A stretch of DNA of 64,000 nt from the IMG/VR virus record IMGVR_UViG_3300027749_005140, positions 1-64,000 of that record; one strand, given 5' to 3'. Position numbers and translations under genes: made by a program. The notes below the pieces were generated by a model. It was given only the letters and a program-made list of their open reading frames with translations, was not told the origin of the DNA and searched no databases. Each line of letters opens with the position of its first letter. Within the stretch, counting starts at the first letter, position 1. Shown here one piece after another: positions 784 through 28,498 of this stretch. Source of the stretch: a virus (taxonomy: Duplodnaviria; Heunggongvirae; Uroviricota; Caudoviricetes).

Positions 784-1236
784 ATGAAAAATGTAATAAG
801 AATAAAACTTATCAACCAATGTGCTGGTAAATTACAATTTGTAAAAAATATAAAAGAACTTTTAGGTTTAGGTTTAAAAGAAGCTAAAGACATTGTTGAT
901 AATATCTGTACTCAACCATTTAAGTATGTTGAGTTTGAAATTCCAAATAATACCAGTATCTATGATGTCAAAAAACTTTTAGATGATTTATCTTGGACTA
1001 GTATATCTCGTGATGATGAAATGGCTTTTTACAACTATGAGATCAATGGTGGCGTACAATGGCAGAGAGAAGCTAATATGTTAAAACTAGGAATAGGTTC
1101 ACGAGAAGATTATTTAGATTTTATTAAACAATCTATTCAAACAAATTTTGGTAACTCAGAAGAATTGATTACATTTGTACTCAATAAATTATCAGACGAA
1201 CAATTAAAACAAACATTAGAAAAAATAGAATATTAA
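784..1236 (+). CDS. ribosomal protein bL12 (L7/L12) C-terminal-domain-like protein
   Basis: [25 protein letters not shown] matches the L7/L12 CTD core ([21 protein letters not shown]). Extra ~80 aa C-terminal extension. Confidence 0.5.
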   Translation: [150 protein letters not shown]

Positions 1237-1653
1237 ATGGCAAATGCACATATACATTCAGTATCTTCAGCACGTAAATTTGGTGGACAACCAGAGGATT
1301 ACTTAACAATACATATAAAGATGGATTGCTCTAAAGCCTATTTATCAGATAATAGACATAGAGCTTTAACACACCACGGGTTTTGGATACACGAGGTGAT
1401 GATACCTATATTCGGATACACAATCACAAACTCAGATGATAAAATTGTATCTGTAAAAGATATATGTGAACAACATATATTAGAAGACTTTGGAATGAGG
1501 TTCATTCCAACTGCACAAGACTACCTTGAAAATTTAGATTTTAAAGAATGGATGCAAAATGGATTAAAAGATAATCCTTCATCTGCAATAAAAATTACAC
1601 AAAAAAATAAATCTGGACAAATACCTAGTCCAACTAACACAATTTTAGACTAA
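1237..1653 (+). CDS. hypothetical protein
   Basis: ORF in co-directional gene run; no recognisable motif. Confidence 0.3.
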   Translation: MANAHIHSVSSARKFGGQPEDYLTIHIKMDCSKAYLSDNRHRALTHHGFWIHEVMIPIFGYTITNSDDKIVSVKDICEQHILEDFGMRFIPTAQDYLENLDFKEWMQNGLKDNPSSAIKITQKNKSGQIPSPTNTILD

Positions 1654-2381
1654 TGATAGTAATATGTAAAAAAGGTAGTACCCGATTAGTAAAAGGACTT
1701 AGATACGAAGTAATCGCTATGAATAATAGTCCAACTTCCTCATATAATAGTGTACGTATTAAAGACTTTGGTGCTTACTCTGTAAAAAACTTTACAACTA
1801 TTGAGGGTAATGAATTACCAAAAATTGATATAGCATTACCACAATACTTCTATAATAGAAATACTTTATTAAAAGTTGATGAAATTAAGAAAGGTGATAT
1901 AATTGTTTGTACCCGAGATACATATAAAACTTTGGTACAAGATGGTATGTATCGTATTGAAGAAATTACTGTTAAATCAACACCGAGAACTTCTTATAAT
2001 GGTACTATACTTTCACCAAATATAGAACATTTCATTAAACTTGAAGGTGTTAAAAGAAAACTAAAGTTCAATGGTTGGACTTTTAGAAAATTGACAATCG
2101 CAGAAGCACGTGAAATGGCATTAGGTCAATTACTATTTGATGAAGAAACAGGAGTTATTACTACAAATGATGTAAGAAAAATTGACTTGGTTAAGAATAA
2201 GAACTTAGAACTAGTTAGATTGGTATCAAAATCTATATTAGACCCTAATAGACACGGGTTAAAGATTTTAGACTGGGGTATTCAACAAGTGTCTAAGAAA
2301 GTAGACGTAAAAGCAGATGATTATGAAGAACTTTTAAATATGTCTTTAAAAGATATATTAGAACTAATCGAAACTAATTAA
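1653..2381 (+). CDS. hypothetical protein
   Basis: ORF, start overlaps upstream stop (ATGA); no motif recognised. Confidence 0.3.
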   Translation: MIVICKKGSTRLVKGLRYEVIAMNNSPTSSYNSVRIKDFGAYSVKNFTTIEGNELPKIDIALPQYFYNRNTLLKVDEIKKGDIIVCTRDTYKTLVQDGMYRIEEITVKSTPRTSYNGTILSPNIEHFIKLEGVKRKLKFNGWTFRKLTIAEAREMALGQLLFDEETGVITTNDVRKIDLVKNKNLELVRLVSKSILDPNRHGLKILDWGIQQVSKKVDVKADDYEELLNMSLKDILELIETN

Positions 2382-2422
2382 GAATAAGTAATACAATTAA
2401 AACAATTAAAAACAATTAAATT

Positions 2423-4321
2423 ATGGTAGAACAGATTTTGGGCTATTGGCCCGTACTTTTAACGCTCGTATGTATCGTTATGTACAAATTCATTTTTCGT
2501 GTATTTTTTGGACTAGTCATTGTTCCTGAGGACAAGGTTGGTTTAGTAACGAAAAAATTCGTTCTTTTTGGAGACAATAAAGAACTTAGTGGTGATAGAA
2601 TCATCGCAGTAAACGGTGAAGCAGGTTTACAAGCTAAAATGCTTTCTCCTGGTTTACATTGGTGGATGTGGCCTTGGCAGTACTCTGTTGATATGCAGGC
2701 ATTCATCGTTATCCCAGAAGGACATATTGGATTAGTTTCTTCTAAAGATGGTAGAGTTCCTAAAACTGGACGTATCTTAGGACGTAGAGTTGAATGTGAT
2801 AATTTCCAAGATGCGGTAGCTTTCCTTAATAACGAAGGACAAAAAGGACGTCAGTCTGCTTATATCACGAATGGTACTTATAAAATCAACACTCACTTAT
2901 TTGAAGTGTCTGCAGTTAAACAAGTAAGTGTACAAGAGAATATGGTTGGTATTGTAACTACACTTGATGGTGAACCACTTAACACTGGTCAAATCGCAGG
3001 AGAACCTGTAACAGGACACAATAACTTCCAAGACTTTGATACATTCTTATCTGAGGGTGGTAATAGAGGTTTACAACAACAAGTAATTCTTGCGGGTTCT
3101 TATAACTTAAACCCTTGGGCAGTACAAGTTGAAGAGGTTCAAATGACTGAAATTCCTATTGGTAATGTTGGTGTTGTTATTTCTTATGTTGGTGCTGATG
3201 GTGTTGACTTAACTGGTGCTAACTTCAAACACGGTAACTTAGTATCTAAAGGACAAAAAGGTGTTTGGGCTGAACCACTTGGACCTGGTAAGTATGCAAT
3301 CAACAGATATACAAATCGTATTGAAGTTGTACCTACTACTAACTTAGTTCTTAACTGGGCAAATGCTAGAACAGAGTCTCACAACTTAGACAAGGGATTG
3401 AGTACGATTACAGTACGTTCTAAAGATGGTTTCCCATTCAACTTAGACGTTTCTCAAATCATTCACATTCCAATGACAGAAGCACCAAAAGTAATCGCTC
3501 GTTTCGGTTCTATGTTAAACCTTGTATCACAAGTATTAGAACCAACAATTGGTAACTACTTCCGTAACTCTGCACAAGATTCAGACGTTATTGCTTTCTT
3601 ATCTACTCGTCAGATTAGACAAGATGCAGCTAAAGCTTCTATCTCTGCAGTACTTGAAGAGTATAATGTTCACGCAGTAGATACCCTAATTGGAGACATT
3701 ACTCCACCAGAGTCTTTGATGAAAACTCTTACTGACCGTAAGATTGCAGAAGAGCAACAAGTGACTTACGAGACACAGAAAAAAGCTCAAGTTCAAAGAC
3801 AAACTCTTGAAAAAGAAACTGCTATTGCAGATATGCAAGGTGAGTTAGTAAAAGCTGACCAAGGTGTTCAAATCTCTGAGAGATTGGCAGACTCTGCAGT
3901 AAAAGACGCAACTGGTAAAGCTCGTTCAGTAAAAATTGCAGCAGAAGCTAACGCCGAATCTACAACATTGAATGCTAAAGCAGAAGCTACCAGAAAAACT
4001 CTTATTGGAGATGCTGAAGCTAACGCTATCTTAGCAGTAGGTAAATCGACTGCAGAATCTTACAGATTAGCTGTTGATGCAATGGGTCAAGATAACTTCA
4101 CGACTTATAAAGTAACAGAAGAAATCGGTAAAGGTAATGTGAAAATTATGCCAGACTTACTTATCAACGGTGGTGGTCAAGGTGGAAATGGTTCATTAGA
4201 TGGACTACTTGGAGTTCAAATCATGAATATGATGGGTAAAGGTTTTAAAAATCTTGAGACAACAGAAATTCCTGCTGAAGTGGTAGTAACAACTACCGAA
4301 GATAAAAAAGGAAAAAAATAA
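2423..4321 (+). CDS. SPFH/band-7 flotillin-like membrane protein
   Basis: N-terminal TM helix, SPFH-like core, long Ala/Glu/Lys-rich coiled-coil C-terminus typical of flotillin/YqiK; terminator follows. Confidence 0.6.
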   Translation: MVEQILGYWPVLLTLVCIVMYKFIFRVFFGLVIVPEDKVGLVTKKFVLFGDNKELSGDRIIAVNGEAGLQAKMLSPGLHWWMWPWQYSVDMQAFIVIPEGHIGLVSSKDGRVPKTGRILGRRVECDNFQDAVAFLNNEGQKGRQSAYITNGTYKINTHLFEVSAVKQVSVQENMVGIVTTLDGEPLNTGQIAGEPVTGHNNFQDFDTFLSEGGNRGLQQQVILAGSYNLNPWAVQVEEVQMTEIPIGNVGVVISYVGADGVDLTGANFKHGNLVSKGQKGVWAEPLGPGKYAINRYTNRIEVVPTTNLVLNWANARTESHNLDKGLSTITVRSKDGFPFNLDVSQIIHIPMTEAPKVIARFGSMLNLVSQVLEPTIGNYFRNSAQDSDVIAFLSTRQIRQDAAKASISAVLEEYNVHAVDTLIGDITPPESLMKTLTDRKIAEEQQVTYETQKKAQVQRQTLEKETAIADMQGELVKADQGVQISERLADSAVKDATGKARSVKIAAEANAESTTLNAKAEATRKTLIGDAEANAILAVGKSTAESYRLAVDAMGQDNFTTYKVTEEIGKGNVKIMPDLLINGGGQGGNGSLDGLLGVQIMNMMGKGFKNLETTEIPAEVVVTTTEDKKGKK

Positions 4322-4340
4322 TAAAATCCTTTTTAAGAAA

Positions 4341-4385
4341 AAACACCCCTATTTTTTAATAGGGGTGTTTTTATTTATAATTTTT
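4341..4385 (+). terminator. rho-independent terminator
   Basis: aacacccctatttttt / aataggggtgtttttattt hairpin plus T-run. Confidence 0.7.
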
Positions 4386-4398
4386 AATATATACAATT

Positions 4399-5145
4399 AT
4401 GTACAATAAAATATATGACTTCTGTAAAGTAAGAAATGAAGGAACTATCTATGATAATAATTCACAGACACCTCCTCCAAGAGTTCAATTTTTAATGGAA
4501 CTTTTAGATTCGGAAGGTATTAAATATGAATTAGATAAGTTTTATACTTCTGAAGTTACCGGATATAATCTTATTCTACAGGGAACATCAAATAGGATGG
4601 TTGTTGCACATCATGATGTAAGTAATCCTAACATAGATAATGCAAATGATAATAGTGCGTCAGTAATCAATGCAATAATGATTAAGAAGCTTTTACCAAC
4701 AATGAATGTAATTCTATTAGATGGTGAAGAAGTTGGGGGTGTAGGCTCTAATAGAGCTTCAGAACTAATCAATAATGGTAAGTTTGGTGATATAGAATGG
4801 GTACTTAATTTAGAGTTAAGTGGTAAAGGTGGTAAACACTTTTTCATCGGAGATTATCCAGGACCTTTAACAGATCACATTAAAAATATTTTTGATTGTC
4901 CAATAGTTCGAACACCTTTTAATGACTCAGTTACATTTAGAAGAAATGGAATTGATTCAGTAGTTATAAATCCATTACCTCCTGTTTTAGAAGGTAAAAC
5001 AAATGTTAAATGGAATGAAGATACATATTTAGATTACTCTATGTTATTTAATTGTCATTCATCAAAAGACACGATTGCAACAATTGATCCAACAGATATG
5101 AAAGAATTTGTTGAAGATGTTGTTTTAAAAATATTAACATATTAA
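4399..5145 (+). CDS. M28-family zinc peptidase-like protein
   Basis: VVAHHDV (H-x-D), DNSASV (Asp), LDGEEVGGVGS (EE-x-G-x-GS) resemble the M28 aminopeptidase metal-ligand motifs. Confidence 0.45.
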   Translation: MYNKIYDFCKVRNEGTIYDNNSQTPPPRVQFLMELLDSEGIKYELDKFYTSEVTGYNLILQGTSNRMVVAHHDVSNPNIDNANDNSASVINAIMIKKLLPTMNVILLDGEEVGGVGSNRASELINNGKFGDIEWVLNLELSGKGGKHFFIGDYPGPLTDHIKNIFDCPIVRTPFNDSVTFRRNGIDSVVINPLPPVLEGKTNVKWNEDTYLDYSMLFNCHSSKDTIATIDPTDMKEFVEDVVLKILTY

Positions 5146-6333
5146 ATGAGAAGTTTAACCAAGTATGATGAATTTATTGTAGAGAAACTTATATTAGAAC
5201 AGCTTCTATTAGAGTCTAATGTAATTTATTCTAGTAAGTTTAAAAAAGCACTTACAAAATTACCGGATAATGAAATAGCTCAAAAGTTATTAGAAATAGA
5301 AAATAAAGACTTAGAAGTAGTTTCTAACTTCTTTGATATAAAAATAGACAATGATAATATATTGACATTTACTCCTGACAGAGTTGCACAACAAATACTT
5401 GAAGATACTAGAGAATATGTAAATTATGTTGGCCGTAGAGGTGGTTGGTTGACTAATAATGTTAGAACTAACGGAGCTATCTTTGCAAGACTTGGATTTA
5501 CTCCTACAACAGAAGAGGTATTTCATCCAAACAATAATCTTATTGGTGAAGTAATTAGTGAAGTGACCTCTGAAAAAACTCATAAAACTTGGTGTTATGT
5601 TAAGTTTCCAACTGGTGAAGGTGTTTATAATAGAGAAAAGTTAAGAACTATTGTTGATGATAAACAAAAGATAGTATTTACTAAAAGTAGACAAGAAATA
5701 AGAATTGGTAGAGCAGTTAGGATTCTATTGACTGCATATAACTTCAATCCAACCGCTGCAGCGATAGAAACATTTGTAAATGAGTTTAGAGCAGTCTTGT
5801 CAATTATGAATGATGTATTCTCACGATTTGAGATAGTCGAAGGTGATGATTTAGGATTCTGGTATCATAGAAGAAACTATGAGTTTCCACACCAAGGTAC
5901 ATTAGGAGGATCTTGTCAAGCAGTTGGAAATCTTGATTGGTTAGAAATTTATATTAAAAATCCACAAACCGTTAAACTACTTATGTTAAAGTCAGAAAAC
6001 TTTGATAATAAAATTATTGGTAGAGCACTTCTTTGGACATTAGATGATGGTAGACAAGTAATGGATAGTATTTATACAAGTAAAGATTCTGATAGAAATG
6101 TATTTATTGAATATGGTAATGCAAAAGGATATCTACAAATGAATTATAGTGATACATTTGTTGCTCATATAAATCCTGGTGAATTTGATCAATATCCATC
6201 AGTTGATAATATGAATAATTGGGATCCAATAACTGGTAAAATTAGTAATAGAAGTTTTCCAGGTTCAAGAGGTATAATATGGAGTGAGAATGATGGTGAT
6301 GAAGAATGGGATGAAGACGATGATAACTGGTAA
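5146..6333 (+). CDS. hypothetical protein, paralog family A (acidic C-terminus)
   Basis: Shares SKF..L..IEN..FTPDR, IY(I/V)KNPQ, GRA(L/I)LW, IYTS(K/N)DSD and an acidic tail with the ORF at 50467..51696. Confidence 0.4.
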   Translation: MRSLTKYDEFIVEKLILEQLLLESNVIYSSKFKKALTKLPDNEIAQKLLEIENKDLEVVSNFFDIKIDNDNILTFTPDRVAQQILEDTREYVNYVGRRGGWLTNNVRTNGAIFARLGFTPTTEEVFHPNNNLIGEVISEVTSEKTHKTWCYVKFPTGEGVYNREKLRTIVDDKQKIVFTKSRQEIRIGRAVRILLTAYNFNPTAAAIETFVNEFRAVLSIMNDVFSRFEIVEGDDLGFWYHRRNYEFPHQGTLGGSCQAVGNLDWLEIYIKNPQTVKLLMLKSENFDNKIIGRALLWTLDDGRQVMDSIYTSKDSDRNVFIEYGNAKGYLQMNYSDTFVAHINPGEFDQYPSVDNMNNWDPITGKISNRSFPGSRGIIWSENDGDEEWDEDDDNW

Positions 6334-6525
6334 AAAAAATAATATATACTAAGTGAAATACTTAAAGCTTTTTGAAGCATTTGTTGCAGATATACCACAA
6401 GTAGAATTATCAGACAAAACAATTGATGATGTTCTTAATCCGAATTTCTTTGAAGAAGTGATTGAGGATGATGGTTCTACAATAGATTCAAATGGAGTTA
6501 TACATATAAAAAATTGGAATATATA

Positions 6526-7707
6526 CTAAAGAATACCGTCTTTTAGTTGATTTATTAAATGATTAGTAATTTTCTGAATGATTCTACTACTAATTATTTC
6601 TGCTTGTTCTTCGTTAAAATCTGAGAACTTTTTACGTTGTTCATTCAATTCTGATTCTTTGATATCATTTAATTTTTCTTTTAAAGCTTGAATGGTTGGT
6701 GCGAACTTTCTATTTTCTAACCAAGTTATAAATTCACCTTTTATTTCGTCTATGATTGATTCCGCAGCAGGTATATAAAGTTTTCGATTCTCGAGTGTTT
6801 CGTCAGTAATTTGTGATAAGTGATCCAAATGTATTAGTGTGACACCATTTATTTCGTTTACATTTTCATTTACATTTTTCGGAATTGATAAATCTAAAAT
6901 CAATAATGGTTTTTTAATATTAAGTATTTCTTTATCAACTGTTGGTTTTTTCGATCCAGTCGCAACAATAACAACATCTACATTTTGGAGTTCTGATTTC
7001 AAATTTTCATAATCTTTTACAATAACATTTACTTTTTGAGCTAACTTTTCTGCCTTGTACTTTGTTCTATTGATTAAAGTTATGTTATCGTGTTTAGTAT
7101 GTTTTACTAAGTTTTGACAAGTATTTATTCCAATTTTTCCTGTTCCTAAAAGAAGAATATTTTTGTTTGCAATATCTTCGACATTTTTAATGATATATTG
7201 AACAGATGCAAATGCAACTGAAGTAGCCCCACTAGAAAGTTTGGTTTCTGTTTTTATTTTTTTACTGGCTTGTATAACAGAATTCACTAATCTTTCCATA
7301 AAAGAATTTACTAATCCTGATGATTTACTTTGTATAAAAGAAGATTTTAACTGACCGATAATTTCAAAATCACCTAAAATTTGACTATCTAGTCCGGCTC
7401 CTACTCGAAACATATGACTTACTGCGTCATGATCCTTGTATACATAAATAACCTCTTGTAATTCTTCAACAGTACCCTCGCTGTTATTACAAAGTAATTT
7501 GATCAACTCATATGGATGATTTGAAAAACCATATATTTCAGTTCTATTACAGGTTGAAGTAACGATTAGAGATTCAATTCCAGCTGTTTTTGCTTGTAAT
7601 AATAATCTTGATTTAGTATTAGTATCTAAAATAAACTTACCTCTCAGTTCAGCATCAGCATTCTTGTAACTTAATCCGATGGCATAGAAAGAAGTGTGCT
7701 TCGTCAT
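6526..7707 (-). CDS. hemA: glutamyl-tRNA reductase
   Basis: Hallmark STCNRTEIY motif near the N-terminus, LLGTGKIG NADPH-binding glycine-rich motif, length ~390 aa. Confidence 0.8.
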   Translation of the reverse strand: MTKHTSFYAIGLSYKNADAELRGKFILDTNTKSRLLLQAKTAGIESLIVTSTCNRTEIYGFSNHPYELIKLLCNNSEGTVEELQEVIYVYKDHDAVSHMFRVGAGLDSQILGDFEIIGQLKSSFIQSKSSGLVNSFMERLVNSVIQASKKIKTETKLSSGATSVAFASVQYIIKNVEDIANKNILLLGTGKIGINTCQNLVKHTKHDNITLINRTKYKAEKLAQKVNVIVKDYENLKSELQNVDVVIVATGSKKPTVDKEILNIKKPLLILDLSIPKNVNENVNEINGVTLIHLDHLSQITDETLENRKLYIPAAESIIDEIKGEFITWLENRKFAPTIQALKEKLNDIKESELNEQRKKFSDFNEEQAEIISSRIIQKITNHLINQLKDGIL

Positions 7708-7721
7708 AGTTTTTAATATTT

Positions 7722-8132
7722 TTATACTTCTACAACCCAGGTATCAGTTTTAAAATCATCCTTTGTCATTACAGTGATTACCGTTAGTGTAAATTCATTC
7801 GCACCAGGTGTTAGTACACAAACTATATTTAATTTAGTTTTCTTATCTCTAATAACAAATCTATTTGGTTTACCATTTTCATCCATAATATCAAATTGAT
7901 CTTGCATTAAAGCAATTGTTATTTCTTCAATCGCAGATTCTACTAAACCTCTAATATCATCATCATCAATTTTACCACTTTCTTTATTAAAACCGTGTCT
8001 ATATTGTTGAATTGCAGCATGTTCTACCTTTTCAAGATCAATTCTAATTTCAACTCTTTTTTGAATTGGACCTAAATCTGTTACTCGTGGTCTAAAACCA
8101 CCTTTAAAGCTTTCAAATTTCTTAATTATCAT
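7722..8132 (-). CDS. hypothetical protein
   Basis: ORF immediately downstream of hemA on the same strand. Confidence 0.3.
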   Translation of the reverse strand: MIIKKFESFKGGFRPRVTDLGPIQKRVEIRIDLEKVEHAAIQQYRHGFNKESGKIDDDDIRGLVESAIEEITIALMQDQFDIMDENGKPNRFVIRDKKTKLNIVCVLTPGANEFTLTVITVMTKDDFKTDTWVVEV

Positions 8133-8165
8133 ATTAGTAAATTATTTTTTAATAAACTATATATT

Positions 8166-8235: not shown

Positions 8236-9324
8236 TTATCCAATCGTTAAGAAGATCTTACGTGATTGTCTATCAACTGATAAAACTTTTACTTTGATGT
8301 CTTGTCCAGACACAAACTTTTTGCCTAATTTCTCCATTTCTGAAGTGTGGATTAGTCCAACTGTTTCATCATCTAAGATTACTAAAGTTCCAAATTGTTT
8401 CACATCTTTCACACGACCATCAATAACTTGACCGTTTTTGATGTTATCCCAAAGTGTTTCTCTTAGAACTTGAGTAAGAATAATCTTCTCTTTAATGATT
8501 TCTTTTACATAGAATTCAATCTCTTGTCCTGGTTTAATTTCGGAGATTCTGTTTTGCCAATCTTCTGTAACATTCGCTTTGTGAATCATACCAGTTAAAC
8601 ACTCGTTAAACTCAACAAAGATACCAAACGGTGTTGTTCCAGTTACTCTACCACCATATAAGTTATTAAACTCAAGATTACCAATTTCTTCTGGAATCAA
8701 TGATTGTAGATACTTTCTACGACTTACGATATAAGTTCCTTCATGTTCTGAGAAAGACTCAATCATTACTTGGAATGTATCACCAACAATTGAAGTTGGG
8801 TCGTAAAGTTTGTTGATACCTGCTAAGGTATTTGGCATAAATCCTGGAAGAGTTACTCCTCCATTTGTGATTTCAACATCGTAACCTGCTGGATTAAGTC
8901 CTCTTACATAAGCGGTTACTGATTCTCCTTCCTCTAAAGATTTAAGGTTTTCGTGAGCTCTTGACTCATATAGTGAAGCAATGCTTCCTTTGATGAAATA
9001 TTGACCGTGATTTATCTCGGTAATTAAAACATCAACCTCATCTCCAGTGTTGCAATTTTTAAGGTACTTTGCCTCATTTGGTTTGTCTTCAACTCTAACA
9101 TCATCTTTGAATCCGTCAACGCTAAATACAAACTGATTAGCCATAATACCTCGGTAGTTAGATCTAACCACATTACCTATTTGTGGTATTTCTAATTTAA
9201 TAGAGCTATAAAGAGCATCTAAGTCTTTATCACTCATATTCTTACCCTTTCTGTAGCTTTTTTCTTCAAATAAAAGCTCAAAGTCTGGGTTTCCTACTTC
9301 TGGGTTTAAAATTTCGTTTGTCAT
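8236..9324 (-). CDS. multi-S1-domain RNA-binding protein (ribosomal protein bS1-like)
   Basis: Repeated S1 OB-fold signatures, e.g. GQVIDGRVKDVKQFGTLVILDDETVGLIHTSEM and GGRVTGTTPFGIFVEF..GMIH. Confidence 0.6.
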   Translation of the reverse strand: MTNEILNPEVGNPDFELLFEEKSYRKGKNMSDKDLDALYSSIKLEIPQIGNVVRSNYRGIMANQFVFSVDGFKDDVRVEDKPNEAKYLKNCNTGDEVDVLITEINHGQYFIKGSIASLYESRAHENLKSLEEGESVTAYVRGLNPAGYDVEITNGGVTLPGFMPNTLAGINKLYDPTSIVGDTFQVMIESFSEHEGTYIVSRRKYLQSLIPEEIGNLEFNNLYGGRVTGTTPFGIFVEFNECLTGMIHKANVTEDWQNRISEIKPGQEIEFYVKEIIKEKIILTQVLRETLWDNIKNGQVIDGRVKDVKQFGTLVILDDETVGLIHTSEMEKLGKKFVSGQDIKVKVLSVDRQSRKIFLTIG

Positions 9325-20689: not shown

Positions 20690-20690
20690 T

Positions 20691-21059: not shown

Positions 21060-21086
21060 ATATGACATATTTCTTCAAGGAAGTTG

Positions 21087-21122: not shown

Positions 21123-21203
21123 ATCAATTAGAATAAATAACAAGCCAAAATCACAATTAAAAGCAATTGACTGCAAGTCAAAAAGAAAAATCAAAAGCAA
21201 TCT

Positions 21204-21806
21204 ATGGAATTAAGCAAGACCCCCTTCTCTGAACAAGAGAAAATTTTTAAAGAAAGAACCGGTAAAGACTTCGCAACACTTTATCAAAAGTATTACCCAA
21301 AACTAATCTACTTTACATCAAGAATTTGTAATGATGTACAAAAAGCAGAAGACATTTCGACAGACTCATTTATGATAGCTCTGGAAAAAATAGAAATGTA
21401 TCAAAAAGAAAAATCACAATTCTCAACGTGGTTATTTACAATTGCAAAAAACTTATCTTTACAAGATAAAAAGTTAGAAAACCGAAACATATCACTAGAC
21501 ATTGAGTTTGATGATGAAGGTACTACTTTAAAAGATTTCTTACAAGAAACTGAAAGTAATGAAGCAATCTATGATGTTTTCACACAGAAAGCTGATGTAA
21601 TGAAGAAACATATCGACGAGTTAAAAGAACCGTATAAAACAGTTATTATAATGAGAGAGATAGAAAGAATGCAATACAAAGACATTGCAGATAAATTAAA
21701 TAAAAACTTATCTACAATAAAATCTCAAATCAGAAATGGTCGTCAAATACTTATGGAACAGTCTAAAAAAGAGTTTGAACAAATAGATGAAATGTTTTTG
21801 GATTAA
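21204..21806 (+). CDS. sigma-70 family (ECF-like) RNA polymerase sigma factor
   Basis: Region 2 FSTWLFTIAKN and region 4 HTH YKDIADKLNKNLSTIKSQIRNGRQIL. Confidence 0.6.
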   Translation: MELSKTPFSEQEKIFKERTGKDFATLYQKYYPKLIYFTSRICNDVQKAEDISTDSFMIALEKIEMYQKEKSQFSTWLFTIAKNLSLQDKKLENRNISLDIEFDDEGTTLKDFLQETESNEAIYDVFTQKADVMKKHIDELKEPYKTVIIMREIERMQYKDIADKLNKNLSTIKSQIRNGRQILMEQSKKEFEQIDEMFLD

Positions 21807-21949
21807 ATGAAAGATAAACAAATAAAAACAACAGAAGAATCGGAAGAAGTTAAAGATGAAAATCAGACTTCTTCTGATAATACTGTCAGAAGATCATTAA
21901 ATGATCACATATCAGAAGTTTTAAAATTAAACACTAAAAAAGAAAAGTA

Positions 21950-23203
21950 ATGAACGTAGAACAGTTAGCAAAGAATGCTATTCAAAAAATAAAATCGAAT
22001 TGGGGTTTGCCTAAAAGAGGTTTCATCGCAGGTGGTTCTGTTGCAAATCTTATATGGGAAGAAGTTTCTGGAACAAAAGCAATCATCAATGACATTGATG
22101 TTTTTTTGTTTGATGGTCTTTTAGATAACTATAACGAGAATAAAAAAGAATACTTTTTTTCATTTAAAGAAGATGAACAGAATATTTGGTATGATGATTA
22201 CGCTGGTCTAAGATTTATTGATAGAGCAAAAAATTATTACTCTATAGTTGAATCTACTACCGAAGGTATATTCAACTACGTTAGTTACAAGTCAAATACC
22301 CACAATCCAGAGATTATTATCAAATCATTTGATATAAACTGTACCGCAATTGGTTACTCAATTGAAGAAGATAAGTTTTATTGGACACCAGAATTTGAGA
22401 AGTTCTTAAAAACCGGAGAGTTAAAAATATCTAATTTGAAAACTCCTTGCCATACGGCAATCAGAATTGTTAAAAAAGCGGAAGAGCTTGATGTTAAATT
22501 AGATTTATTTGAATTGGAGATTGTTCAATGTGTTCTATCACGTCTTACAATTCCAAAACTACAAGATGTTTATAAAGTTAGATTTCAAGATAGATATTTT
22601 AATATGTTTAACAATCATAAGATACTCAATAACTATTTCACAATAGAAAAAGATCTTGACTGTATGACACACGTCAAAACGACATATGACAAAGATGTAG
22701 ATCTATGGACTTTAAAAACTAAAAAAGAGTTATTACTAGATAATAATCTACTTGCTATTCATAAAGGTGATGATTTCTTATTTTATTTAAGAAATATTTA
22801 TACCAAACCAGAATTAGTAGATATATGGAATCAGTTGAGACCTTTATTTGTAAATGAAGATTATGTAGATGGTGGTGTTGATGTAGAAGATATGAAATTA
22901 TTATCAAGTACAATTCAGTTTCTACCAAAAACAATACTTAATTTAAGAGGATATAAACTAACTGAACAGATTTCAATACTAAAACTATTATTAGAACGAT
23001 ATAAAGAAGATCCCGAAATTGCTTTTTCGGTATTAGAAAAACATACTATCGAACCAGGACAAGAGATTGATGATACAACAGCTTTACTTTATGAACTTTC
23101 AGTAAGAAAAGAAATTGTTGATGATGCACATAATTCTAGAGTTCAGAGTATCTTATCTAAAATAGAATCTAAAGTAGAAGATAGTGATCACTGGCCAATT
23201 TAA
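21950..23203 (+). CDS. hypothetical protein
   Basis: 417-aa ORF, no motif recognised. Confidence 0.3.
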   Translation: MNVEQLAKNAIQKIKSNWGLPKRGFIAGGSVANLIWEEVSGTKAIINDIDVFLFDGLLDNYNENKKEYFFSFKEDEQNIWYDDYAGLRFIDRAKNYYSIVESTTEGIFNYVSYKSNTHNPEIIIKSFDINCTAIGYSIEEDKFYWTPEFEKFLKTGELKISNLKTPCHTAIRIVKKAEELDVKLDLFELEIVQCVLSRLTIPKLQDVYKVRFQDRYFNMFNNHKILNNYFTIEKDLDCMTHVKTTYDKDVDLWTLKTKKELLLDNNLLAIHKGDDFLFYLRNIYTKPELVDIWNQLRPLFVNEDYVDGGVDVEDMKLLSSTIQFLPKTILNLRGYKLTEQISILKLLLERYKEDPEIAFSVLEKHTIEPGQEIDDTTALLYELSVRKEIVDDAHNSRVQSILSKIESKVEDSDHWPI

Positions 23204-23249
23204 AACTTTTCAACAAAATATAATATAAATATAAACTAAATATAAAATT

Positions 23250-23570
23250 ATGGGATTTATTACAGAATTAGATGAAACTAACTATGATGGATTTGTAGAA
23301 AGTGGAGTAGCATTAGTAGATATATGGGCAACGTGGTGTGGACCATGCCGTCAAATTGCACCAATTGTAGATCAATTTTCAATTGATTTCCAAGGAAGAG
23401 TAGCAGTTGGTAAATTAGATGCAACCCCAAATGGTGACAAAGTTTCCGAGTTAGGTATCAGAAACATTCCTACAATCTTAATCTATAAAGATGGAGAAAT
23501 TGTAGATAGAAGTGTTGGTATGACAACTAAAGAGAAATTGTCTGAACTTGTTGAGCAATACCTAAACTAA
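23250..23570 (+). CDS. trxA: thioredoxin
   Basis: WCGPC active site, 106 aa. Confidence 0.85.
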   Translation: MGFITELDETNYDGFVESGVALVDIWATWCGPCRQIAPIVDQFSIDFQGRVAVGKLDATPNGDKVSELGIRNIPTILIYKDGEIVDRSVGMTTKEKLSELVEQYLN

Positions 23571-24145
23571 TGGAAGAAATAGATTATTTATATGATCTAA
23601 TTAGTAAAACAGAGACAACCTTAATTGGTTATCGATTTTCAGATGAAAGAATTAAAGATGAAATTATTTCTAATCTTGGAGGAACCAAGATAATAGATTT
23701 AAGTTCATCTTTTTCTATGAAGTCAATCCTTAGAGATATGAAAATTGATCAAGTTTTAAATGAAGAAGAAAAACTTGAGTATCTATTATTAGATATAAAT
23801 GATATAAGAAATTCTTATATTAAACAAAGAAATTTTACTAATGAAGATATAAACCGGGCAGGTATAATAAAAAATACTATTTACGATATAAGAGATTGTT
23901 TAAGAGATAGTAGAAATGGTAAAGATATAAATGATATTAAATTGATAATTACTTGTCCACTACAATCTAATGGTTTAAATAAAGATAATAATATGATTGA
24001 TTCTTTTATAGGTGGTTCAACACCTTTATATTTGGCAGATTTAGCAATGGTTATAACTCAACAAAGTAATGATAAAGTAATACAAGTCATTAAGAATAGG
24101 GAATCAGATTTCCACAAAATTATAAAATATGATAGCATTAAATAG
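23570..24145 (+). CDS. hypothetical protein
   Basis: ORF. Confidence 0.3.
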   Translation: MEEIDYLYDLISKTETTLIGYRFSDERIKDEIISNLGGTKIIDLSSSFSMKSILRDMKIDQVLNEEEKLEYLLLDINDIRNSYIKQRNFTNEDINRAGIIKNTIYDIRDCLRDSRNGKDINDIKLIITCPLQSNGLNKDNNMIDSFIGGSTPLYLADLAMVITQQSNDKVIQVIKNRESDFHKIIKYDSIK

Positions 24146-24560
24146 AAGAGCACGTTATGAATATACGTTCATAGAAGAATTTGACTGCGGAATAATATTG
24201 GTCGGTAGTGAGGTAAAATCAGTTAGAATGGGTAATGTTACTTTAATCGATGCGTTTATTTTTATAAAAGATAATGAAGTTTGGATAAAGAATCTAAAAA
24301 TTGCTGCTTATAAATCAGCACATACTTTAGACATACACGAAGAAAATCGAGATAAAAAACTTCTTTTAAATAAAAAAGAGATTGTACGAATCAAAAGAAA
24401 ACTGGAAGATAAAGGTATAACCGCAATTCCACTTGGTATGTTTGTTAAGAATAACAAAATTAAAATTAAAATAGCTGTGGCTAAGGGTAAGAAAACTTGG
24501 GATAAAAGAGCTTCAATAAAGGAAAGAGATCTTACCAGAGAGATGCAACGAAATATATAA
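24129..24560 (+). CDS. smpB: SsrA-binding protein SmpB
   Basis: Full-length match to SmpB: IALNRRARYEY, GSEVKS, KLLLNKKE, AIPL..F, KIKIAVAKGKK.WDKR..IKERD. Confidence 0.85.
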   Translation: MIALNRRARYEYTFIEEFDCGIILVGSEVKSVRMGNVTLIDAFIFIKDNEVWIKNLKIAAYKSAHTLDIHEENRDKKLLLNKKEIVRIKRKLEDKGITAIPLGMFVKNNKIKIKIAVAKGKKTWDKRASIKERDLTREMQRNI

Positions 24561-24563
24561 TAT

Positions 24564-24917
24564 ATGAAATTGACGTTATTAGAATATCTTGATAAATTAC
24601 ACCTATCAAATACTGAAGATGAAGTTATTGATACACTTAAAAGACTTATGAAGAACTTTAGTTCCAATAATTACAAAGGTGTTATTATGTCAAATCCGTA
24701 TTTTAAATCATTAGCACTTGATTTAAAAGAAGAGGTCGGTAAAGAAATGAATTTAATGAAAGATTTAATAACTGTTGAAATCGATAATCTCAATTCACAA
24801 TTAAATAAAACTAAAAATACAGCGGACTTTTTAAAATTAAAGGATCTAAGAAGAGAATGTGTACACCTTTTAACTGAGTTAGAAACTAGACAACATGATT
24901 TATATCTACTATCTTAA
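24564..24917 (+). CDS. hypothetical protein
   Basis: ORF. Confidence 0.3.
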   Translation: MKLTLLEYLDKLHLSNTEDEVIDTLKRLMKNFSSNNYKGVIMSNPYFKSLALDLKEEVGKEMNLMKDLITVEIDNLNSQLNKTKNTADFLKLKDLRRECVHLLTELETRQHDLYLLS

Positions 24918-26582
24918 AAAGTCTTTAACTATTCGTTCAAGATTATCTAATTTTTTAATATCCTTTTTGTAGTCTTCATCACTATATCTTAATCTACTCA
25001 TCTTCAGTTTTAATGACGAAGAATCTGCATCTAAACTTGTAAGAATATCTTTAACAGGTCTTGAAAGGAAAAAAATATCATCTTGTGCTAACTCATATAA
25101 TGATGATAATCTAACTTGCACCGATTTAAGATCTTCAATAGTTTCTATATCTTTAGTTTTAACTGAAATTGATAAGTTTAAACCAATTTTAACCACTTTA
25201 TCAATTATATCAGACATTCTTTCTGCATTTTGATTATGTGTATCTTTAACAATTTTAATACCTTTAGAGTAAGCAGTCGTTTGTTTCAAGCGTCTTTTCT
25301 TAATAGTTTTGAATAATTCATACGTTTTCTCAAAGTTATAAGAATTATCATTTTCTGACATAAGTCTATATAAATAAGAAATAAAGTCTGTTAATCTATC
25401 AATATAAGCACTACTATTATAAAGAGCGATTATAAAGTAATCTCCGATAATTGATGATGAGACAACTGAGTTAAGATTTTTAAATTCTTGTTTATCTTTT
25501 TCAATTCCCAATTTTGTAAATAAAGTAGTTAGATACCTTTCAACATTTTCTTTTCTAATATCTTCTGGTTTTTTTAAAGCTAATGCGTTATTTTTGAATG
25601 ATTTTCTCCTACTTATAATATCAGATGTGGTATCATCAACATTTTTAATTATTATATCATCGAGAAAAAGAACAATTGCAAAATTTGCTTCTTTACTTAC
25701 TTTATTAAAAATTGAAGTTTTTCTCTGATTCCATTCTTCCAAATTAGTTCCATCCAATGGTAAATTGAAATCCCAAACAGATTCTTCTGTCTTATTCATC
25801 TTCTCTAAATCATCATCTTTAAATCTTAATGGTTTTTCATCAAGTATTACTTTATGTAACATAAGATGATCATCTGATTCATTTTCTGGACTTCCTAATG
25901 ACCAAGCATATTGATAAGCAGCGTTACCTTCATAAAGGTTATATCTATCTGGTATTTGTATTTCATTTCTGGTTACAGAAGGATCTGAACCTTCATGATC
26001 ATTTTGATAAAAGTAATACTGAGGATCATCATCATCTCTTCTATTATCCGCGTATATTTCACCAAAAGTTAAATAAGTAGGATCTCCATTGAAATCTTCA
26101 CCACAAACCATTACTACTTTATCACCAGTTACTAAATCTCCTAATCTAGCTGGAGTAATAATACCACCTATTTTATATTCTCTAGCTAGGTAAGCTAAGT
26201 GAGATTGATCTAAACCTTCACCATTACTCATCATAGCACCATTATAAGAATTATACTTATTATAATCCATTGTTTTATTTCCAGTTCCAGTACTACATAA
26301 ATATCCGTTTTCTAATGAAAACCAATACTTAATACAATAAGTTCCAGATGGATTCATTGCTTCTTCACCTCTACCAACAGAAAGTGCTTTATTTACTGGT
26401 AGATATTGTATTTCTTTATCACTTAATGTACTTAAAGGAAAATCAAATTTATCTGAAAGTTTTTTTAATACTTTCAAAAACTCTCTTGTAGGATTATCAC
26501 TCTTTATCTTGTTATTTAAAAATGAAAGTATTGCACTAATCCTATTAGATTCAAAACCTTCGTATAATTTTAAGTACTTCAT
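24909..26582 (-). CDS. hypothetical protein (557 aa)
   Basis: Long minus-strand ORF. Confidence 0.35.
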   Translation of the reverse strand: MKYLKLYEGFESNRISAILSFLNNKIKSDNPTREFLKVLKKLSDKFDFPLSTLSDKEIQYLPVNKALSVGRGEEAMNPSGTYCIKYWFSLENGYLCSTGTGNKTMDYNKYNSYNGAMMSNGEGLDQSHLAYLAREYKIGGIITPARLGDLVTGDKVVMVCGEDFNGDPTYLTFGEIYADNRRDDDDPQYYFYQNDHEGSDPSVTRNEIQIPDRYNLYEGNAAYQYAWSLGSPENESDDHLMLHKVILDEKPLRFKDDDLEKMNKTEESVWDFNLPLDGTNLEEWNQRKTSIFNKVSKEANFAIVLFLDDIIIKNVDDTTSDIISRRKSFKNNALALKKPEDIRKENVERYLTTLFTKLGIEKDKQEFKNLNSVVSSSIIGDYFIIALYNSSAYIDRLTDFISYLYRLMSENDNSYNFEKTYELFKTIKKRRLKQTTAYSKGIKIVKDTHNQNAERMSDIIDKVVKIGLNLSISVKTKDIETIEDLKSVQVRLSSLYELAQDDIFFLSRPVKDILTSLDADSSSLKLKMSRLRYSDEDYKKDIKKLDNLERIVKDFLR

Positions 26583-26625
26583 AAACTATATATTAAAATA
26601 TATTTTTTAAATTAAAACTTTGTTG

Positions 26626-26633
26626 TATATTTG
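26626..26633 (+). promoter_or_regulatory. -7 promoter box TAnnTTTG
   Basis: tatatttg about 200 nt upstream of the YqeY-tyrS operon. Confidence 0.4.
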
Positions 26634-26644
26634 CACAATAAATA

Positions 26645-26662
26645 ATGAGCTACTACAACTGA
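26645..26662 (+). CDS. candidate mini leader peptide MSYYN
   Basis: atg agc tac tac aac tga just downstream of the promoter box; two Tyr codons upstream of tyrS. Confidence 0.2.
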   Translation: MSYYN

Positions 26663-26837
26663 CCTGTTAGAGAATAAGTTTTGGTCACATAGTTATAGTT
26701 AGTGTTTATGGTAGTAATTAGCTGGGAAATACGTTTTCTTATACACTTTTAATAAAAACAGTGAACTACCTCGATATTAAATATAAAATATGAAAATAAA
26801 AGTGTATTTTTTTAGAAATTATTAAAAAATAAATATT

Positions 26838-27242
26838 ATGAATTTAAAAGAACAAATTAGCAAAGACTACATGATAGCTTTCAAAGAAAGAAATATCGTA
26901 GCAAAAAACTTACTTTCTGTAGTGAAAGGAGAGATCCAAACTATTGAGAAGAATACTAGTGTTGATTGTCTTTCTGATGTAGAAGTAGTTAAAATTCTTA
27001 ATAAAACTGCAAAGTCTTTAAATGAGGTTATTTCATTAAATGGTGATGAAGAGTCTAAATTACAATTAAAAATTGTAGAAGCTTTTCTTCCAACACCTTT
27101 AACTAAAGAAGATATTGTTATTAAAGTAAATGAACTAGTTGCATCTGGAATTACAAATGTTGGTGGTATTATGAAAGAGTTTGCTACTTTACATGTAGAT
27201 AGAAAAGTTGTATCAGAAGTTATTAAAGAAGTATTAGCATAA
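26838..27242 (+). CDS. GatB/YqeY-domain protein
   Basis: Colinear with YqeY (MNLKEQI..DYM.AFKERN..LLSVVKGEI.....EAFLP..LT.EDI). Confidence 0.6.
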   Translation: MNLKEQISKDYMIAFKERNIVAKNLLSVVKGEIQTIEKNTSVDCLSDVEVVKILNKTAKSLNEVISLNGDEESKLQLKIVEAFLPTPLTKEDIVIKVNELVASGITNVGGIMKEFATLHVDRKVVSEVIKEVLA

Positions 27243-28498
27243 TGAAAAATATAGTAGAAGAATTACAATGGCGTGGGTTAGTACACGATATAATACCCGG
27301 AACGGAGGCTCAACTTTTAAAAGAAGCCACCACCTCTTATATTGGTTTTGATCCAACGTCAGATTCTCTACACATTGGGAGTTTAGTTCCCATCATTCTT
27401 CTAAAACATATGAAGAATTTTGGACACAATCCTATCGCACTTGTTGGTGGGGCTACTGGTATGATCGGTGACCCCTCTGGTAAGTCAAATGAAAGAAATC
27501 TATTAGACGAACAAGAACTTAATAAAAATGTTGAAGGTATCAAAAATACTTTGACCAGATTTTTAGGTGATACTCCTGTAGTAAATAACTACGATTGGAT
27601 GTCAAAGTTTAGTTTCATAGATTTTGTAAGAGACATCGGTAAAAGAATTACTATAAATTACATGTTATCAAAACAATCTGTAAAGAACCGTATCGAAGGT
27701 GAAGGAATGTCTTTCACTGAGTTTACTTACCAGTTGATTCAAGGATACGATTTCTACCATCTAAATAAAGAGTATAACTGTTTATTACAAATGGGTGGTT
27801 CAGATCAATGGGGTAACATTACAACAGGAACTGAACTAATTCATAAAATGAATCCTGGTAGGGAAGCTTTTGCTATGACATGTCCTTTACTAACTAAATC
27901 GGATGGTTCTAAGTTCGGAAAATCTGAAGGAGGTACAAACATATGGTTAGATAAAGATAAGACCTCTGTGTACAAGTTTTACCAATTTTGGATAAGTACT
28001 GATGATAATGATGCAGAGAGATATATTAAAATCTTTACATTTTTAGATAAAGAAACTATTGATAATTTAATAGAAGAGCATAATAAAGCAAAACACTTAT
28101 TTTTGTTACAAAAAACATTAGCAAGAGAAATAACTATTATGGTTCACGGTCAACAAGAGTTTGAAAAAGCAGTAGAAGCTTCTAACATTTTATTCAATGG
28201 TGGAGATTTAAACTTACTTGATGAAGAATTATTCTTAGATATATTTGGTGGAATACCACAAGCGAAAGTTCCTATGGAAGATATTCTTGCTGGTATTACA
28301 ATGACAGACATTCTATTTAAAACAGGTTTCTTAAAATCAAATAATGAAGCTAGAAGAGCTTTAAAAGAAAACTCTGTTGCAGTAAATAAAATAAAGAGAG
28401 AGGAAGACTACATAGTAACAGATGTTGATTTGATAAATGATAAGTTTATCATACTACAAAGAGGTAAGAAAAGTTACTTCTTAGTTGAAGCATCATAG
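27242..28498 (+). CDS. tyrS: tyrosyl-tRNA synthetase
   Basis: YIGFDPTSDSLHIGSLVPI (HIGH region, here HIGS), VGGATGMIGDPSGKS, KFGKS, C-terminal S4-like domain. Confidence 0.85.
   Translation: MKNIVEELQWRGLVHDIIPGTEAQLLKEATTSYIGFDPTSDSLHIGSLVPIILLKHMKNFGHNPIALVGGATGMIGDPSGKSNERNLLDEQELNKNVEGIKNTLTRFLGDTPVVNNYDWMSKFSFIDFVRDIGKRITINYMLSKQSVKNRIEGEGMSFTEFTYQLIQGYDFYHLNKEYNCLLQMGGSDQWGNITTGTELIHKMNPGREAFAMTCPLLTKSDGSKFGKSEGGTNIWLDKDKTSVYKFYQFWISTDDNDAERYIKIFTFLDKETIDNLIEEHNKAKHLFLLQKTLAREITIMVHGQQEFEKAVEASNILFNGGDLNLLDEELFLDIFGGIPQAKVPMEDILAGITMTDILFKTGFLKSNNEARRALKENSVAVNKIKREEDYIVTDVDLINDKFIILQRGKKSYFLVEAS

Follow-up and report, generated by a model that had tools for sequence, protein, structure and literature searches.

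Leader open reading frames and terminators upstream of the tRNA sub-arrays of a predicted Mahaphage, and its accompanying translation-support genes

Huge phages are known to carry sizeable translation-related gene sets: Al-Shayeb et al. 2020 reported among them up to 67 tRNAs, up to 15 aminoacyl-tRNA synthetases, S1, S21, L7/L12, transfer-messenger RNAs (tmRNAs) and SmpB, and assigned genomes of at least 634 kb (634–735 kb), as well as the Lak phages, to the Mahaphage clade, predicting Bacteroidetes as hosts (PMC7162821). Elsewhere, phages more often carry a tmRNA without SmpB, ssrA being present in 2.3% of phage genomes (PMC9004378), and bL12 domains embedded in non-ribosomal phage proteins were described by Mizuno et al. 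2019 only in cultivated phages below 80 kb (PMC6375957). Here we analyze a stretch of 64,000 nucleotides (nt) from a caudoviricete virus (positions 1–64,000 of IMG/VR record IMGVR_UViG_3300027749_005140; hereinafter the window), which encodes a full-length SmpB, a tyrosyl-tRNA synthetase (TyrRS) paired with a YqeY protein, an S1-domain protein, a protein with a domain resembling the L12 C-terminal domain (CTD) and some 30 tRNAs, and in which the tRNA sub-arrays are preceded by units consisting of a short leader open reading frame (ORF) and an intrinsic terminator. An initial annotation had recognized this phage-encoded translation module in the interval 784–28498, and these protein components are indeed present; its description of the set as unusually large did not hold, given the published maxima for huge phages (PMC7162821) and the 59 tRNAs that ARAGORN finds in the closest relative.

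The closest DNA and protein matches of the window are to that relative, LR745206.1, a 634,780-bp genome deposited as 'uncultured phage' and part of the Al-Shayeb et al. 2020 huge-phage set (PMC7162821). In tblastn searches, 20 of the 29 window proteins encoded at 1–29250 match LR745206 in the same order with 27–75% identity, the colinear stretch pairing window 1–27242 with LR745206 312469–336500. A 96%-identical relative of the window is present on a 105-kb IMG/VR contig, and a megablast of the window against the phage collection gave no match. Judged by gene order and sequence similarity to LR745206, and not by terminase or capsid phylogeny, the window is predicted to represent about one tenth of a huge (~0.6 Mb) phage of the Mahaphage clade with a Flavobacteriia-like Bacteroidota host, and its gene inventory accordingly adds one more predicted member to the known huge-phage translation kits. 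Taken as a whole, the window is probably best explained as part of a Mahaphage translation-support module whose tRNA sub-arrays are gated by leader attenuators.

Leader and terminator units before the tRNA sub-arrays

ARAGORN detects 29 tRNAs between 29717 and 63347, and the total rises to 32–33 when Rfam and relaxed ARAGORN settings add Ser(gga) at 31777–31863, Ser(gct) at 31871–31957, Ile(gat) at 62637–62729 and a partial match at 62938–62997. The count of about 35 tRNAs given in the initial annotation for 784–28498 was thus too high and misplaced, no tRNA being found inside that interval; the tRNA-Tyr that it mentioned exists, as Tyr(gta) at 38683–38768 in the ARAGORN output. Directly upstream of the tRNA sub-arrays we found leader/terminator units, five in the window and seven in LR745206 (Table 1). 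The first to be noticed lies in the 310-nt gap between tRNA-Met and tRNA-Tyr, which is conserved with LR745206 and contains a mini-ORF followed by a strong terminator. Together, the five window units cover 30–31 of the 32–33 tRNAs, two tRNAs being without a leader, namely Phe(gaa) at 31210–31282 and Met(cat) at 38299–38372.

Table 1. Positions of the features discussed (window coordinates unless marked LR745206)
Feature	Position	Strand	Description
L12-CTD-domain protein	784-1236	+	150 residues; L12-CTD-like N-terminal 88 residues, then a four-helix C-terminal domain
Glutamyl-tRNA reductase (HemA)	6526-7707	-	TIGR01035 279.6 bits (cut-off 209.55); Pfam GlutR_N, Shikimate_DH, GlutR_dimer
S1 RNA-binding protein	8236-9324	-	362 residues; four domains, N-terminal extension; Pfam S1 76.6 bits
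Phage sigma factor	21204-21806	+	Pfam Sigma70_r2 and r4_2; 75% identical in LR745206
Nucleotidyltransferase-like protein	21950-23203	+	417 residues; weak Pfam NTP_transf_6 match
ORF upstream of SmpB	23570-24145	+	No matched family; overlaps SmpB by 17 nt
SmpB	24129-24560	+	143 residues, full length; basic C-terminal tail GKKTWDKRASIKERDLTREMQRNI
ORF downstream of SmpB	24564-24917	+	No matched family; starts 4 nt after SmpB
YqeY/GatB-C-like protein	26838-27242	+	Pfam 42.3 bits (gathering threshold 27); PHROG 1460
TyrRS	27242-28498	+	Bacterial-type; HIGS, KFGKS, C-terminal S4-like domain
39-residue ORF	29292-29411	+	MKIKNYGLVVLFLIIIGVTESCASRCGQQRRYWSKHRCV
Unit A	29534-29712	+	Leader ORF 29534-29644 (MRTNSIHTSFSKSFKWFSHKFG...); terminator 29674-29703 and T-run
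tRNA sub-array A	29717-30126	+	Lys(ttt), Trp(cca), Phe(gaa), His(gtg), Lys(ttt)
345-residue ORF	30196-31233	+	Cys/His-rich
Unit B	31465-31596	+	Leader ORF 31465-31542 (MKTIITTSSSSSSRSSNLREVLLCS); terminator 31566-31591
tRNA sub-array B	31607-31957	+	Arg(acg), Ser(gga), Ser(gct)
Unit C	38497-38664	+	Leader ORF 38497-38598 (MTTITNITIAIEAIGGYEAGYII...); terminator 38630-38657
tRNA sub-array C	38683-39801	+	Tyr(gta), Glu(ttc), Glu(ctc), Glu(ttc), Ile(tat), Gly(tcc), Gly(gcc), Ala(tgc)
Unit D	61311-61472	+	Leader ORF 61311-61415 (MKTTNLNINLTLNVLCLRR...); terminator 61444-61465
tRNA sub-array D	61493-62178	+	Arg(tct), Leu(taa), Leu(aag), 88-residue ORF, Leu(caa), Leu(tag)
Unit E	62315-62465	+	Leader ORF 62315-62404 (MKTNTVNINVITITNCVNNTTSG...); terminator 62429-62459
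tRNA sub-array E	62472-63347	+	Asn(gtt) x2, Ile(gat), Val(aac), Val(tac), partial tRNA-like match, Cys(gca) x2, Thr(ggt), Thr(tgt)
LR745206 units	342380-342553, 343630-343767, 365029-365266, 366081-366227, 387700-387897, 406703-406868, 407638-407756		Seven units (LR745206 coordinates)

The units share a common architecture. A conserved A/T-rich promoter-like block with TAnnTTTG-like and TTTAATATATA motifs forms the 5′ part; it is followed by a leader mini-ORF of 16–38 codons beginning with MKT, MTT or MRT and, after a spacer of 24–31 nt in the window units, by a G+C-rich hairpin (-10 to -18 kcal/mol) with a T-run. Such an intrinsic terminator separates leader and tRNAs, at a distance of 5–21 nt from the first tRNA, in 5/5 window units and 7/7 LR745206 units. 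The TTTAATATATA motif recurs at 4383, 21093, 29517, 31449, 38154, 49644 and 62299 on the plus strand and at 57249, 26597, 17900 and 8168 on the minus strand, 5–15 nt upstream of the start codons of ordinary genes and leader ORFs alike; it is probably a phage promoter element and is possibly read by the phage sigma factor encoded in the window, a candidate reader of such promoter-like motifs.

The composition of the leaders tracks the isotypes of the tRNAs downstream. In the window, the middle of the unit A leader reads ...HTSFSKSFKWFSHKF... before Lys Trp Phe His Lys; that of unit B ...TTSSSSSSRSS... before Arg Ser Ser; that of unit C ...IAIEAIGGYEAGYII... before Tyr Glu Glu Glu Ile Gly Gly Ala; that of unit D, which also overlaps a weak Rfam Thr_leader match at 61415–61475, ...NLNINLTLNVLCLRR... 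before Arg Leu Leu Leu Leu; and that of unit E ...NTVNINVITITNCVNNTT... before Asn Asn Ile Val Val Cys Cys Thr Thr. The LR745206 leaders include MTTTQQIQQQQINQTD before three tRNA-Gln, ...APVNPQPQDQDP... before Pro Asp Asp Asp Asp Pro, ...SYESYYEEG... before Glu Glu Glu Tyr Glu Tyr and ...ISIAVIGNGAGAI... before Ile Gly Met Gly. Leaders are conserved in five further relatives, and the phage Lak-B5 has one convincing unit only, MKTLNMTYCMHPVCGMIHMFPCGGGR, before His Pro Arg Arg ... Gly Gly Cys Met.

Across the 12 units of the two genomes, the mean fraction of leader residues (from position 4 on) for which a tRNA exists in the array just downstream is 0.463; when array labels are permuted within each genome, the mean is 0.18 and the maximum 0.42, so that 0 of 100,000 permutations reach the observed value, with single-unit binomial P-values ranging from 0.05 to 2e-8. 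The leaders also have predictive value: the Ser/Arg leader predicted the identity of two tRNAs that ARAGORN had left unnamed, Ser(gga) and Ser(gct), and an Ile-containing leader that of the unnamed Ile(gat). Scanning IMG/VR with the shared 5′ motif brought up another 22 unique leader/array pairs, from independent contigs as long as 597 kb; here the match was 0.50 against 0.25 ± 0.04 in permutations, again with 0/100,000 reaching it, and examples include MKTTMTITISRSRSSRSL before Ser Arg Ser Ser Arg Ser and ...AQVQPQDQDP... before Gln Asp Pro. The leaders are, moreover, complementary to the 5′ arms of their terminators: in the 12 units, the best leader duplex with this arm is stronger than that of shuffled leaders (mean z -2.04), and it falls in the 3′ part of the leader ORF in nine units. 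For short leaders, a partition function computed with the ribosome footprint masked gives the switch expected, for example a paired fraction of 0.74–0.89 with the ribosome stalled versus 0.18–0.26 with the ribosome at the stop codon.

From these features we infer that the leaders are translated and operate a switch and, by analogy with the trp and his operons, that most of the tRNA sub-arrays would not be constitutive, five of them being regulated by ribosome-mediated attenuation. Transcription would begin at the unit's promoter and a ribosome would load on the leader. When charged tRNAs for the regulatory codons are scarce, this ribosome would stall within the leader, allowing a downstream leader segment to pair with the 5′ arm of the terminator and the polymerase to continue into the tRNA genes; when they are plentiful, the terminator would form and transcription would stop. 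Each sub-array would thereby come under negative feedback by its own products, and the resulting closed loop on tRNA supply would let the phage respond to depletion or cleavage of host tRNAs, for example after host shut-off. The module as a whole would serve to sustain productive translation of AT-rich phage mRNAs by the host ribosomes. We are inclined to accept the combined proposition that tRNA supply runs in a closed loop through the array's own leader attenuators while SmpB recycles ribosomes with host tmRNA, the phage having no tmRNA of its own.

Several observations weigh against this reading of the units. The best duplexes of 3/12 units are no better than those of shuffles; masked-footprint folding yields the expected switch in only 4–5/12 units, the long leaders being uninformative; and the units are paralogous or homologous within and between genomes and hence not fully independent samples. 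Some of these points would also suit a different account, in which the mini-ORFs are no sensors at all and instead encode small conserved phage peptides, or are untranslated parts of an insulating promoter/terminator cassette, the resemblance to isotypes being a by-product. As paralogous repeats with a shared MKT/MTT N-terminus and 5′ region, the units are similar partly by descent, the thermodynamic switch test says little on most long leaders, TTTAATATATA precedes ordinary genes too, and Lak-B5 has but a single convincing unit. Such an account would nevertheless leave unexplained why the variable middle of the leader changes with the downstream isotypes across genomes (MTTTQQIQQQQINQTD with Gln x3, PQPQDQDP with Pro/Asp, SRSRSSRS with Ser Arg Ser Ser Arg Ser, YESYYEE with Glu/Tyr), why no label permutation reaches the observed match in either of two data sets, why the isotypes of undetected tRNAs could be correctly predicted from leaders, and why terminator-arm complementarity exceeds that of shuffles. 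No alternative mechanism is known by which tRNA genes would come to match the amino acids of one particular reading frame, and we give the non-sensor account very little credence next to attenuation.

Full-text literature searches turned up no description of leader control of tRNA genes, and a regulatory principle of this kind, with multi-isotype leader peptides attenuating tRNA genes, would be without precedent, in phages or cells, in the literature searched. The units offer a concrete and testable mechanism for when phages express their tRNAs and bear on the debate over why phages carry them, be it codon usage or the replacement of degraded or cleaved host tRNAs. If the mechanism is true, they would be natural sensors of individual tRNA pools and the first attenuators known to control tRNA genes.

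Further observations concern the tRNA regions themselves. The region 38154–38372 with tRNA-Met(cat) has the promoter-like block, with no leader ORF or terminator before the gene, in contrast to the other arrays. Just upstream of unit A lies a conserved 39-residue ORF with a signal-peptide/lipoprotein-like N-terminus (Table 1), which is identical in one relative. A Cys/His-rich ORF interrupts the first tRNA array between tRNA-Lys and the lone tRNA-Phe and may be a mobile insertion of the endonuclease type. Four tRNAs that do not belong to class II are long (82–89 nt): His at 29957–30045, Asn at 62552–62640, Cys at 63008–63096 and Thr at 63266–63347; they may carry insertions or short introns, and relatives have comparably long Lys, Trp and Arg tRNA genes. 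LR745206 harbors a GOLLD RNA (287 bits) at ~420875–421280, between tRNA-Met and tRNA-Pro, and Rfam searches gave no GOLLD match in the window. The relatives suggest that the whole genome of the window phage holds about 60 tRNAs.

SmpB and the question of its RNA partner

The initial annotation had called SmpB full-length and well conserved, and the comparisons made here bear this out. The protein matches Pfam PF01668 with 172 bits over profile positions 1–140 of 143 and exceeds both NCBIfam equivalog cut-offs (NF003843, 174.4 bits against 130; TIGR00086, 163.9 against 119.1). In phmmer searches it aligns to the solved SmpBs of Aquifex aeolicus (1p6v, E 1.6e-36) and Mycobacterium tuberculosis (5zey) through residue 142, including the tail, which keeps its GKK..DKR motif. 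More than 120 phage SmpB clusters show 68–100% identity, all of 143–147 residues, on contigs of up to 648,731 bp, and identical copies were retrieved from metagenome contigs no longer than 10 kb. With tblastn we recovered SmpB in all Mahaphage records above 500 kb of the phage collection searched, i.e., LR745206, LR756502, LR756504, a 735-kb genome (deposited as LR756501 and LR756503) and 15 Lak genomes. The LR745206 copy is syntenic and 64% identical to that of the window, and the Lak-B5 copy is 49% identical.

SmpB is flanked by two ORFs of no matched family (Table 1), both kept at the same positions in LR745206 with 31–37% identity and, because of this positional conservation, possibly co-expressed with SmpB. 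Searches of PHROGs, Pfam and NCBIfam returned no family for them or for the further neighbor at 24909–26582.

The initial annotation had seen no tmRNA in the window, and this was confirmed with ARAGORN (default, 95% and 90% thresholds), Rfam (E ≤ 1) and a custom scan for the tRNA-like domain (TLD) of tmRNAs. As the genome of the window is incomplete, the whole-genome question was examined with the genomes of relatives as proxies. None was found in the complete 634,780 bp of LR745206 by ARAGORN (default, 95%, 90%), by Rfam in gathering mode or by the custom TLD scan, of which the Lak-B5 gene, included as a control, was the only clean match; the Lak tmRNA used as an nhmmer or blastn query gave no match in the window or LR745206, and 1.24 Mb of further loci, many from relatives, yielded no tmRNA. 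Several candidates were discarded on the way. The 'permuted tmRNAs' called by ARAGORN at 80% (four in the window, 44 in LR745206) overlap tRNAs and are noise; the relaxed TLD-scan candidates in the window and LR745206 all lie in or beside tRNA arrays, and those at LR745206 407056/407084–407435 and 421295–421557 end in the T-arm of an annotated tRNA. The 310-nt gap at 38373–38682, considered as a structured RNA or tmRNA-like gene, proved to be the site of unit C.

The situation is different in the Lak branch. Lak-B5 (MK250024.1) has a one-piece tmRNA at 409798–410207 that scores 48 bits with Rfam RF00023 against a gathering score of 47 (E 2e-17); it was missed by default ARAGORN and flagged at the 95% threshold as 409798–410205. 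The gene is divergent and AT-rich, does not encode CCA, has an ARAGORN tag guess of DDEIEFRMAA* and is conserved in 15/15 Lak genomes, all of which also have SmpB. The Mahaphage clade thus did own a complete SmpB–tmRNA pair, and the tmRNAs of megaphages are only just detectable, which makes the negative result for LR745206 a good one, though not a final one.

An SmpB without a partner gene of its own is plausible for the lineage of the window, and on balance we favor the view that the phage protein uses host tmRNA. Counting against it are that the LR745206 negative, obtained with Rfam in gathering mode, ARAGORN and the custom scan, could be false; that the genome of the window is incomplete; and that the tmRNA owned by the Lak phages lies barely above the Rfam gathering score and is overlooked by default ARAGORN. 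SmpB might consequently be no orphan, a divergent AT-rich phage tmRNA encoded elsewhere in the ~0.6-Mb genome completing a private trans-translation system as in Lak. The pairing of the two genes in Lak-B5, kept in 15/15 Lak genomes, the evasion of default ARAGORN by the Lak-B5 tmRNA, the fact that the window is only ~10% of its genome and the report of both tmRNAs and SmpB among huge phages (PMC7162821) would fit this possibility; the closest complete relative, which has the syntenic SmpB, is negative by all methods used and has only 22 ORF-free gaps of at least 300 nt, and the 1.24 Mb of further loci yielded nothing. We therefore consider a phage-encoded tmRNA a real possibility, though the less probable of the two.

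The initial annotation had further entertained an anti-trans-translation role, and this found no support. As a decoy, SmpB would sequester host tmRNA or occupy stalled ribosomes and so block trans-translation, for instance to stop the tagging of phage proteins. The lack of a detected cognate tmRNA in the window and LR745206 would suit such a role, as would the length of the protein, which presumably lacks 5–17 residues at both ends in comparison with E. coli SmpB. The protein has nevertheless kept its C-terminal tail, with which SmpB inserts into the mRNA channel, and aligns to solved SmpBs through residue 142, both SmpB equivalog models are passed, and the homologues, full length throughout at 68–100% identity, give no sign of relaxed or divergent selection; moreover, the Lak phages keep the same gene together with tmRNA, so the ancestral role was that of a working pair. 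The protein has the tail and the general conservation of a functional SmpB, and an inhibitory decoy is therefore disfavored; blocking of ribosome rescue is unlikely, and we rate the decoy as a whole very low. SmpB would most likely perform ordinary trans-translation (ribosome rescue), with the host tmRNA or with a phage tmRNA lying outside the window.

Two consequences follow. Retention of SmpB in all records of the clade above 500 kb in the collection searched, with tmRNA in Lak and none detected in LR745206, turns the ability of a viral SmpB to work with host tmRNA into a testable question, and standard tmRNA callers under-report megaphage tmRNAs.

Other translation-related proteins and neighboring genes

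Profile searches support the SmpB, TyrRS and YqeY assignments of the initial annotation as well as the S1 and L12-CTD domains, whereas the models for the orthologous ribosomal proteins bS1 and bL12 are failed. For the module as a whole this is a point on the negative side: with both proteins below the ribosomal-protein equivalogs, their association with ribosomes is only inferred.

The 'bS1-like' protein does have clear S1 domains and is colinear with residues 38–344 (domains 1–4) of E. coli bS1 in an alignment to PDB sequences, and its syntenic homologue in LR745206 is 66% identical. It lies below every rpsA equivalog (best 102 bits against a cut-off of 577) and has neither the equivalog-level similarity nor the six S1 domains of bS1. 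The rpsA profile NF004955 aligns from profile position 6 at residue 29 of the protein, far below cut-off, and residues 33–53 may resemble the N-terminus of E. coli bS1, the segment through which bS1 is anchored to uS2. Within a translation-support module, this four-domain protein would bind mRNA, and it may plausibly recruit phage mRNA to the ribosomes of Bacteroidota hosts, which are Shine-Dalgarno-independent.

The supposed viral bL12 homologue likewise retains only its domain assignment. Pfam PF00542 is matched with 30.9 bits (gathering threshold 25.9) by residues 10–41, over profile positions 6–37 of 67, and the bL12 equivalog TIGR00855 is failed (24.3 bits against 84.4), only profile positions 62–95 of 125 being matched; the protein is not a bL12 orthologue. 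An AlphaFold2 model (predicted local distance difference test 73, predicted template modelling score 0.60) has a beta-alpha-alpha-beta-alpha-beta fold over residues 3–88, followed by four helices. Foldseek searches with this model retrieve the L7/L12 CTD at 23–26% identity, and also ClpS, with E-values of only ~0.1; ClpS shares the L7/L12 CTD fold. The N-terminal dimerization and uL10-binding domain and the hinge are absent, the protein beginning directly with the CTD-like fold, and none of 77 homologues, all of 139–155 residues, has a recognizable bL12 N-terminal domain. The N-terminal fold carries a GLGLKEAKD motif, which we take to preserve the elongation-factor-binding residues of E. coli L12. 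We read the protein as a putative factor-binding adaptor or decoy and not as a stalk protein: it would keep the elongation-factor-binding face but would be unable to join the ribosomal stalk.

TyrRS is supported by TIGR00234 (381 bits, cut-off 113.8), by Pfam (263 bits) and by SYY_C (52.8 bits). Its nearest non-phage homologues are those of Flavobacterium and Tenacibaculum at 69–70% identity, suggesting that the phage acquired the gene recently from a host of the Flavobacteriia. The initial annotation had read its HIGH motif as HIGS and suspected that it may alter ATP binding. The motif does read HIGS, and so it does in 119 of the 120 closest homologues, bacterial ones included, the remaining one having HIGN; it is the norm in the donor lineage, the Flavobacteriia, and not an alteration by the phage, which rules out a functional variant. 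KFGKS is intact in the window TyrRS and was present in all homologues inspected. With this, two supposed oddities of the window, HIGS and a 'viral bL12', are removed.

The operon proposed for YqeY and TyrRS stands as far as the arrangement goes: the genes adjoin, and the TAA stop of YqeY shares one base with the ATG of TyrRS (junction GCATAATGAAA). LR745206, however, has YqeY at the syntenic site and, by tblastn, no TyrRS anywhere in its genome. This lone YqeY rules out a co-evolved operon and makes the pairing a secondary juxtaposition, by later insertion of TyrRS behind a pre-existing YqeY. No Tyr-rich leader was found upstream of the two genes. In the translation-support module, a host-type TyrRS would sit behind YqeY as a tRNA-binding helper.

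Among the remaining genes, HemA gave no tblastn match in LR745206; this enzyme consumes Glu-tRNA, and three tRNA-Glu genes lie in the same window. The nucleotidyltransferase-like gene directly follows that of the sigma factor and is conserved in LR745206, and a protein identical to its product was already annotated with PF26128 (Gad2, an anti-Gabija family). Profile searches also identified CoaE, an NAD-dependent ligase and a thioredoxin within 784–28498.

Comparison with known systems

The window resembles the kits described for huge phages (PMC7162821) in its synteny with a member of that set and in combining tens of tRNAs, an aminoacyl-tRNA synthetase, an S1-domain protein, an L7/L12-like protein and SmpB, and the Bacteroidetes hosts predicted there agree with its Flavobacteriia-like TyrRS. 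It differs in that its lineage carries TyrRS and glutamyl-tRNA reductase, whereas LR745206 is without both; Lak has a tmRNA, whereas none was detected in LR745206, the nearest complete relative; and leader-ORF control of tRNA arrays goes unmentioned in that study (PMC7162821).

Compared with the bacterial SmpB–tmRNA system, the phage SmpB likewise passes the equivalogs and has the oligonucleotide-binding core and basic C-terminal tail; unlike it, the protein is encoded by a virus, with no ssrA found nearby or in the closest complete relative. The L12-like protein shares with the phage bL12-domain proteins (PMC6375957) an isolated L7/L12 CTD with a conserved factor-binding motif in a non-ribosomal protein, whereas the family found here is 140–150 residues long and fused to a conserved four-helix C-terminal domain, with homologues on metagenomic contigs of up to 648,731 bp and a syntenic one in the huge phage LR745206.

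For the leader/terminator units there are two relevant comparisons. T-boxes, of which Rfam detected none in the window, similarly couple translation-supply genes to tRNA charging or abundance through a terminator/antiterminator choice; they bind uncharged tRNA directly and without translation, whereas the sensor of the phage units would be a translating ribosome. The trp, his, thr, leu and pheST attenuators have in common with the phage units a short leader ORF with many regulatory codons that is directly followed by an intrinsic terminator, and further upstream a segment that can pair with the 5′ arm of this terminator. Unlike these, the phage units precede tRNA genes and not biosynthetic or synthetase genes, their leaders hold mixed codons that mirror a multi-isotype array, and they are repeated many times within one phage genome, in a setting with a Bacteroidota-type host.

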